Assembly (NCBI RefSeq): GCF_003334335.1
Contig: NZ_QOWQ01000203.1
Length of the DNA stretch: 365 nucleotides
Source of the DNA: Escherichia coli
Lineage (GTDB): Bacteria > Pseudomonadota > Gammaproteobacteria > Enterobacterales > Enterobacteriaceae
Reading direction: 5' to 3' (one strand)
Made by a program: the position numbers and the translations under genes. Below, piece by piece: positions 1-365 of this stretch; positions within the stretch are counted from its first letter, which is position 1, and each line of letters begins with the position of its first letter. Under the pieces are notes generated by a model. That model was not told where the DNA came from, made no database searches, and saw nothing but the letters and a program-made list of their open reading frames with translations.

Positions 1-365
1 AGTCCCCACACCCCGTATGTCTCCACACCATCAGGCAGGGTACTGACCTGTATCCGGTCCGGCGCGGGGTGTGCGGTGATGTCCACACTCACCGGCTTAC
101 CGCTGCCGTTAATCAGGTTCACCGTCGATGCACCTGTCCCCGGAAGTGTCACTTCACGGTCCAGCGTCAGGGTGCGGGTGGCAGCATCGATGGACAGGAC
201 ACGTCCGCCGGTCAGGGTCCCGGCATAGTCGTTATCACAGATTTCAATGATGTCACCGGGTGTGTGCCGCAGCCCCTGAGACCCGAGTGTGAAATCCACC
301 GTCTGCGTTTCCAGCAGTTCGGTCTTTATCACCCACAGCCCGGCACGGTGGGCCTGACCGCGGCT
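1..365 (-). CDS. J: Internal fragment of a lambda-like phage tail tip / host specificity protein (gpJ-family central tail fibre protein); partial at both ends
   Basis: Seen in sequence: the reverse complement read from base 365 gives 121 sense codons with no stop (complement of 365..3), and bases 2..1 begin the next codon. The other two minus-strand frames hit TGA within about 36 and 111 nt. Leucine is encoded almost entirely by CTG, as in well-expressed enterobacterial or lambdoid genes. Recognition from memory, not a database search: motifs such as SRGQAHRAGLW-IKTELLETQTVDF, GDIIEICDNDYAG, TRTLTLDRE and NGSGKPVSV match what I recall of the central region of phage lambda gpJ (about 1130 aa), with many substitutions. 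No start or stop codon lies in the window, so true gene boundaries are outside it. Confidence 0.87.

Follow-up and report, generated by a model that had tools for sequence, protein, structure and literature searches.

A 365-nucleotide stretch of Escherichia coli DNA assigned to the tail-tip gene J of lambda-like prophages

Here, we show that a 365-nucleotide stretch of Escherichia coli DNA, referred to as the window throughout, represents codons 440 to 560 of J, the tail-tip gene of a lambda-like temperate siphophage that almost certainly resides as a prophage in an E. coli chromosome. Each of the defining features accessible to testing, namely, sequence, whole-protein score, domain architecture, synteny, and coding constraint, establishes its membership in the lambda gpJ/TipJ family. 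The J fragment is ordinary and already known, and it shows no departure from the described lambdoid prophages of E. coli. An initial annotation made from the letters of the window had likewise spoken of an ordinary, well-described gene family and not of a new system, a judgment that agrees with all testable features of lambda gpJ/TipJ. The features assigned to the window and the positions of its two identical copies are compiled in Table 1.

Table 1. Features of the window and chromosomal positions of its identical copies
Feature	Position	Strand	Basis
Internal fragment of the tip attachment/central tail fibre gene J, codons 440-560 and first two bases of codon 561	1..365	-	Open frame, homology, identical copies, dN/dS
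Hub domain IV core, C-terminal portion through strand beta24 (J residues 440-482), end of PF13550	237..365	-	Pfam match and domain boundaries from PMC10721106
Inserted beta-sandwich of hub domain IV, major part (J residues 483-560)	3..236	-	Boundaries from PMC10721106
Antisense frame, open over 121 codons and codon-aligned with J, not considered a gene	3..365	+	Codon shuffles, no PHROG match, stops in relatives, dN/dS
Identical copy L001, strain STEC2018-607, NZ_CP075697.1	401383-401747
Identical copy L002, strain NCTC9112, NZ_LR134079.1	3340357-3340721

The window has a G+C content of 62% over its 365 bases, and its minus-strand frame 0 runs without a stop codon across the entire length, comprising 121 codons plus two bases and encoding a peptide of 121 residues (SRGQAHRAGLWVIKTELLETQTVDF...ETYGVWG). 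The earlier statement that one uninterrupted minus-strand frame spans the window is correct in this respect but incomplete, since plus-strand frame 2 is likewise open across the whole window and had gone unmentioned. In 5000 mononucleotide shuffles of the window, any given frame stayed open in 2 to 3% and one or more of the six frames in 14%. An open frame of such length is in itself weak evidence, and the case thus rests on homology and on the evolutionary pattern.

Five independent searches, against PHROGs, Pfam, NCBIfam, PDB sequences, and phage DNA, agreed on the identity of the minus-frame peptide or of the window, and gpJ-family proteins were the top matches in the four protein libraries as well as in the PDB. 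The reading of the translation as gpJ-like, for which a profile and protein search with the 121-residue translation had been proposed, was thereby borne out. Among PDB sequences, phmmer retrieved the lambda gpJ chains 8iyk_J and 9e7m_Ja with E values of about 1e-49 (1.3e-49), aligning query residues 1 to 120 with chain residues 440 to 559 free of gaps. Over lambda J residues 440 to 560, 77 of the 121 residues are identical (64% at the protein and 67% at the DNA level), and the two sequences are colinear without gaps. In PHROGs, the peptide matched two families, phrog_7997 at an E value of 6.5e-68 (tail protein and host specificity) and phrog_31 at 2e-54 (central tail fiber J), and in Pfam, fragment residues 1 to 54 matched positions 107 to 160 of the 164 positions of PF13550 (Phage-tail_3; E 1.5e-9). 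The NCBIfam model NF049904 (lambda_TipJ) gave 232 bits at profile positions 440 to 560; its curated cut-off of 1950 bits applies to the whole protein and is out of reach for a fragment of 121 amino acids, whereas the full-length J protein encoded at locus L001 scored 2321 bits.

Two copies identical to the window over all 365 bases were found among 5426 complete E. coli genomes. In both loci, the window (positions 20001 to 20365) lies within a full-length, non-pseudogene gpJ gene on the minus strand (17987 to 21682 in L001 and 18152 to 21682 in L002) and is in frame with the annotated start as codons 440 to 560, as expected from the initial annotation, which had placed it wholly inside a J-like gene. 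The J protein of L002 has the canonical architecture of FNIII-A_GpJ, Phage-tail_3, Ig_J, Ig_J_second, and Phage_Tail_Tip, with Pfam matches at residues 86 to 207 (PF24801), 331 to 492 (PF13550), 609 to 712 (PF24421), 714 to 816 (PF24489), and 871 to 998 (PF09327).

The surroundings of J are those of a lambdoid phage. Upstream of J and on the same strand, both loci carry genes for tail assembly protein I, the C40 peptidase K, L, M, the tape measure protein H, T, G, V, U, and Z, followed by a complete head and terminase module with terminase, portal, capsid, and head-decoration genes. Downstream of J, lom is present in L001 only, and tail-fibre genes follow in both. The gene order H-M-L-K-I-J followed by lom/stf, which had been quoted for lambda, was confirmed on the lambda genome (J02459), and J is the last large tail gene in both identical loci. 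Extended versions of the loci (L012 and L013) add genes for lysis, antitermination (Q), replication, and regulation, with an integrase gene at the far end, giving prophages of roughly 50 kb. One of them (L001 with L012) extends from a truncated ompW to xis-int adjoining yecE, and the other (L002 with L013) extends from serT to int adjoining yccA. Inspection of the flanks, recommended in the initial annotation and carried out on the identical copies, thus revealed both same-strand tail genes and an integrase, and the assignment of the locus to phage-derived DNA is upheld by their position inside complete, lambda-ordered prophages. Both identical copies are parts of integrated lambdoid prophages with an integrase end, chromosomal flanks, and full modules. 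For the window itself, which comes with no flanks of its own, we infer the prophage context from these identical copies elsewhere.

Comparison with phage genomes placed the window more precisely among its relatives. At an identity of at least 90%, it matched 149 phage records, in nearly all of which the matching segment carries a J, host specificity, or tail fibre protein annotation. The phage matches were bimodal: the group at 90% or above mostly contains Stx-converting phages and further lambdoid phages of E. coli, and a second group, at 60 to 80%, includes lambda proper and its close kin. Judged by nucleotide identity, the window belongs to the former lineage of Stx-converting/EHEC lambdoid phages. 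The J genes of VT1-Sakai, BP-4795, Stx2 phage 1717, JLK-2012, PPompW_EH1992, and the PhiR12 series are 92.6 to 99.2% identical to it over its whole length, differing by few synonymous changes and two to seven amino acid changes. No phage record among the phage DNA matches was 100% identical. In the J gene of VT1-Sakai (L004; AP000400.1, 11228 to 13648), which is annotated as a "truncated protein by a mutation," the part corresponding to the window is intact, with 95% identity.

Lambda gpJ itself (PDB 8IYK, 8XCG, and 9E7M; NF049904) resembles the J proteins found here in its colinearity over residues 440 to 560, its domain composition, its gene order, and its full-length Pfam architecture. It differs in length, with 1132 amino acids compared to 1231 and 1176 amino acids in L001 and L002, respectively, and in its C-terminal regions, to which those of the two J proteins are only 0 to 50% identical in most alignment bins. 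Considering this C-terminal divergence, the receptor is probably not LamB.

A different origin of the window would be a degraded, noninducible prophage remnant, in which J persists as a pseudogene fragment. Many EHEC lambdoid prophages are defective, up to 11 copies of the window occur in a single E. coli genome, and the truncated annotation of VT1-Sakai J illustrates that a frame intact over 121 codons does not prove that the whole source gene is intact. We nevertheless regard such an origin as unlikely, since the frame is uninterrupted over all 121 codons of the window, both exact-match J genes have their full length, carry no pseudogene flag, and are situated in complete prophages, and the relatives at 97.0 to 99.2% identity are isolated Escherichia phages of the PhiR12 and PhiR5 series, with E. 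coli K-12 or C as listed hosts. Derivation of the gene from a phage-tail-like bacteriocin (F-type tailocin) instead of a phage is scarcely credible, given that the weak match to an F2-pyocin tail fibre protein (E 1.4e-10; residues 447 to 539) falls about 40 orders of magnitude short of that to lambda gpJ and that terminase, portal, capsid, and head-decoration genes are present in both exact-match loci.

Selection on the J frame was examined in an alignment of the window with eight close relatives and lambda. Among the nine close sequences, variable columns were distributed as 6, 5, and 33 over the first, second, and third codon positions of the J frame, respectively, and Nei-Gojobori dN/dS ratios in this frame amounted to 0.08 to 0.14 in comparisons with the eight close relatives and to 0.21 in the comparison with lambda. 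The J frame is under clear purifying selection.

The same alignment bears on the plus-strand open frame, which might be taken for a real overlapping antisense gene inside J. This frame is uninterrupted over the full window, carries in L001 a 291-amino-acid mechanical open reading frame (20069 to 20944) that extends well past the window, and is open in the matching segment of lambda as well. Yet none of 5000 shuffles of the J codons closed it, because J lacks TTA, CTA, and TCA codons here, the reverse complements of the three stop codons. In six of the nine other aligned sequences it is broken by a stop; five are counted among the eight close relatives and none for lambda. Antisense-frame dN/dS ratios exceeded 1 in eight of nine comparisons, with values of 1.7 to 5.5 in seven of the eight close ones, as substitutions sit on the third codon positions of J. 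The plus-frame peptide had no PHROG match, and no promoter-like site was detected for the frame. On the strength of the codon-shuffle test, the stops in relatives, the dN/dS ratios above 1, and the missing PHROG match, we rejected an antisense gene, the probability of which we consider negligible; the frame is open as a side effect of codon usage.

Apart from the J fragment, the window appears devoid of embedded elements of the kinds that were searched for. Neither strand produced an Rfam match at E values up to 1, and the folding energy was no better than that of shuffled sequences on either strand (z scores of -0.71 and -0.65). Within the window, there were no internal promoter-like or terminator-like sites, no direct repeats, and no Chi sites; a single 12-nucleotide imperfect inverted pair is consistent with chance.

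Its position within J assigns the window to the structural hub of the protein and not to the receptor-binding end. Lambda gpJ is a trimer that builds the conical tip and the central fibre of the tail (PMC10721106, PMC11101478). Below the gpM ring, hub domains I and IV continue the tail tube and adapt it, domain IV together with gpL, and LamB is bound by the distant C terminus of J (PMC10721106, PMC11101478). In hub domain IV of lambda gpJ, an extra beta-sandwich formed by residues 483 to 569 is inserted between strands beta24 and beta25 (PMC10721106) and sits at the periphery of the domain (PMC10721106, PMC11101478). The window contains parts of both elements, of which the hub domain IV core (J residues 440 to 482) is 84% identical to lambda and the inserted beta-sandwich (J residues 483 to 560) 53%. 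None of the Pfam models covers residues 493 to 608 of full-length J.

The baseplate hub protein pb3 of phage T5 has structural counterparts of hub domains II to IV and of the FNIII domains in gpJ, and it is described as lacking the beta-sandwich at residues 483 to 569, a gpJ addition that fills two thirds of the window (PMC10721106). The fold with four hub domains is common to T5 pb3, T4, 80alpha, RcGTA, and the VgrG protein of type VI secretion systems (T6SS).

By analogy with lambda, binding of the receptor at the far C terminus of J would generate a signal that is passed up the fibre, whereupon the FNIII domains would swing away and the hub domains would move as rigid bodies, opening the tube for DNA exit. 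Trimeric assembly, this mode of tube opening, and C-terminal receptor binding may be expected for the J protein encoded by the window as well.

The structure papers on the lambda tail tip establish no role for the inserted beta-sandwich (PMC10721106, PMC11101478). A function as a dock for side tail fibres was considered and rejected, as Stf attachment has been described elsewhere on the tail in Ur-lambda, where the Stf N termini surround the gpV/gpM junction as a collar, with contacts described to gpV and gpM only (PMC12617516). One could speculate that the beta-sandwich (J residues 483 to 569) lies exposed and acts as an accessory module, such as one that binds cell surface carbohydrates weakly and varies between J lineages. 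This idea derives from its faster divergence from lambda compared to the hub core, and the data are otherwise neutral toward it; we consider it improbable. If it were true, the "structural" part of J would constitute a second, minor determinant of host range.

The two J proteins containing the identical window also provide insights into the mosaic structure of the gene. J of L001 (1231 amino acids) and J of L002 (1176 amino acids) are 100% identical over residues about 181 to 660, in contrast to the C-terminal approximately 400 residues, where identity varies between 3 and 72% per bin of 60 alignment columns. Thus, J is mosaic, and the window is located in its conserved half. The breakpoint of recombination can be placed downstream of the window, somewhere between about residues 660 and 840.

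These observations delimit what the window can identify. As the identical window is shared by J proteins with different C termini, it gives no indication of receptor specificity, and as its identical copies occupy different insertion sites, it is not assignable to one prophage, site, or source locus. Matches to the window are present in 1892 of the 5426 complete E. coli genomes, i.e., in about a third, at a median of two and up to 11 places per genome. Such a repeated segment can confuse assembly and mapping, and it offers prophages homology through which they can recombine. The window marks lambdoid prophage DNA of horizontal origin, from a lineage common in Shiga toxin-producing and other E. 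coli, and has little import beyond annotation. Plasmid records hold 14 of the 6244 matching places in the complete E. coli genomes; these may represent phage-plasmids or misassigned replicons.

The chromosomal flanks differ between the two prophages. In NCTC9112, the prophage of approximately 49 kb is situated between the tRNA-Ser gene serT and yccA (L002 12569 to 12656; L013 21298 to 23384). These two genes are adjacent in K-12, which gives the NCTC9112 copy the appearance of a simple insertion; its site is not that of the STEC2018-607 copy. The flanks of the STEC2018-607 prophage are mismatched (L001 7042 to 7167; L012 21495 to 23562; NZ_CP075697.1 at about 388.4 to 444.6 kb). A truncated ompW and trp-yciGFE are found on one side, and on the other side the integrase gene overlaps yecE (DUF72), followed by yecN-cmoA-cmoB-torZ. 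In K-12, a distance of 637 kb separates ompW (1.314 Mb) from yecE (1.951 Mb). This arrangement suggests either that the prophage is a hybrid or that recombination between a prophage at ompW and a prophage at yecE produced a large inversion of the chromosome.

Further genes lie past the tail-fibre genes at the prophage ends. In L001, the region from 7895 to 14346 encodes an S6-family peptidase (3993 nucleotides), which we take to be a SPATE-type autotransporter, and a YadA-like adhesin, and a YadA-like protein is encoded in L002 (13503 to 15520). These cargo genes are possibly virulence or adhesion morons. In NCTC9112, the late regulatory region additionally contains three tRNA genes (Arg, Arg, and Ile; L013 4925 to 5174) downstream of a DNA methyltransferase gene; they are absent from L012. 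tRNA genes in this region are typical of Stx-type lambdoid phages.
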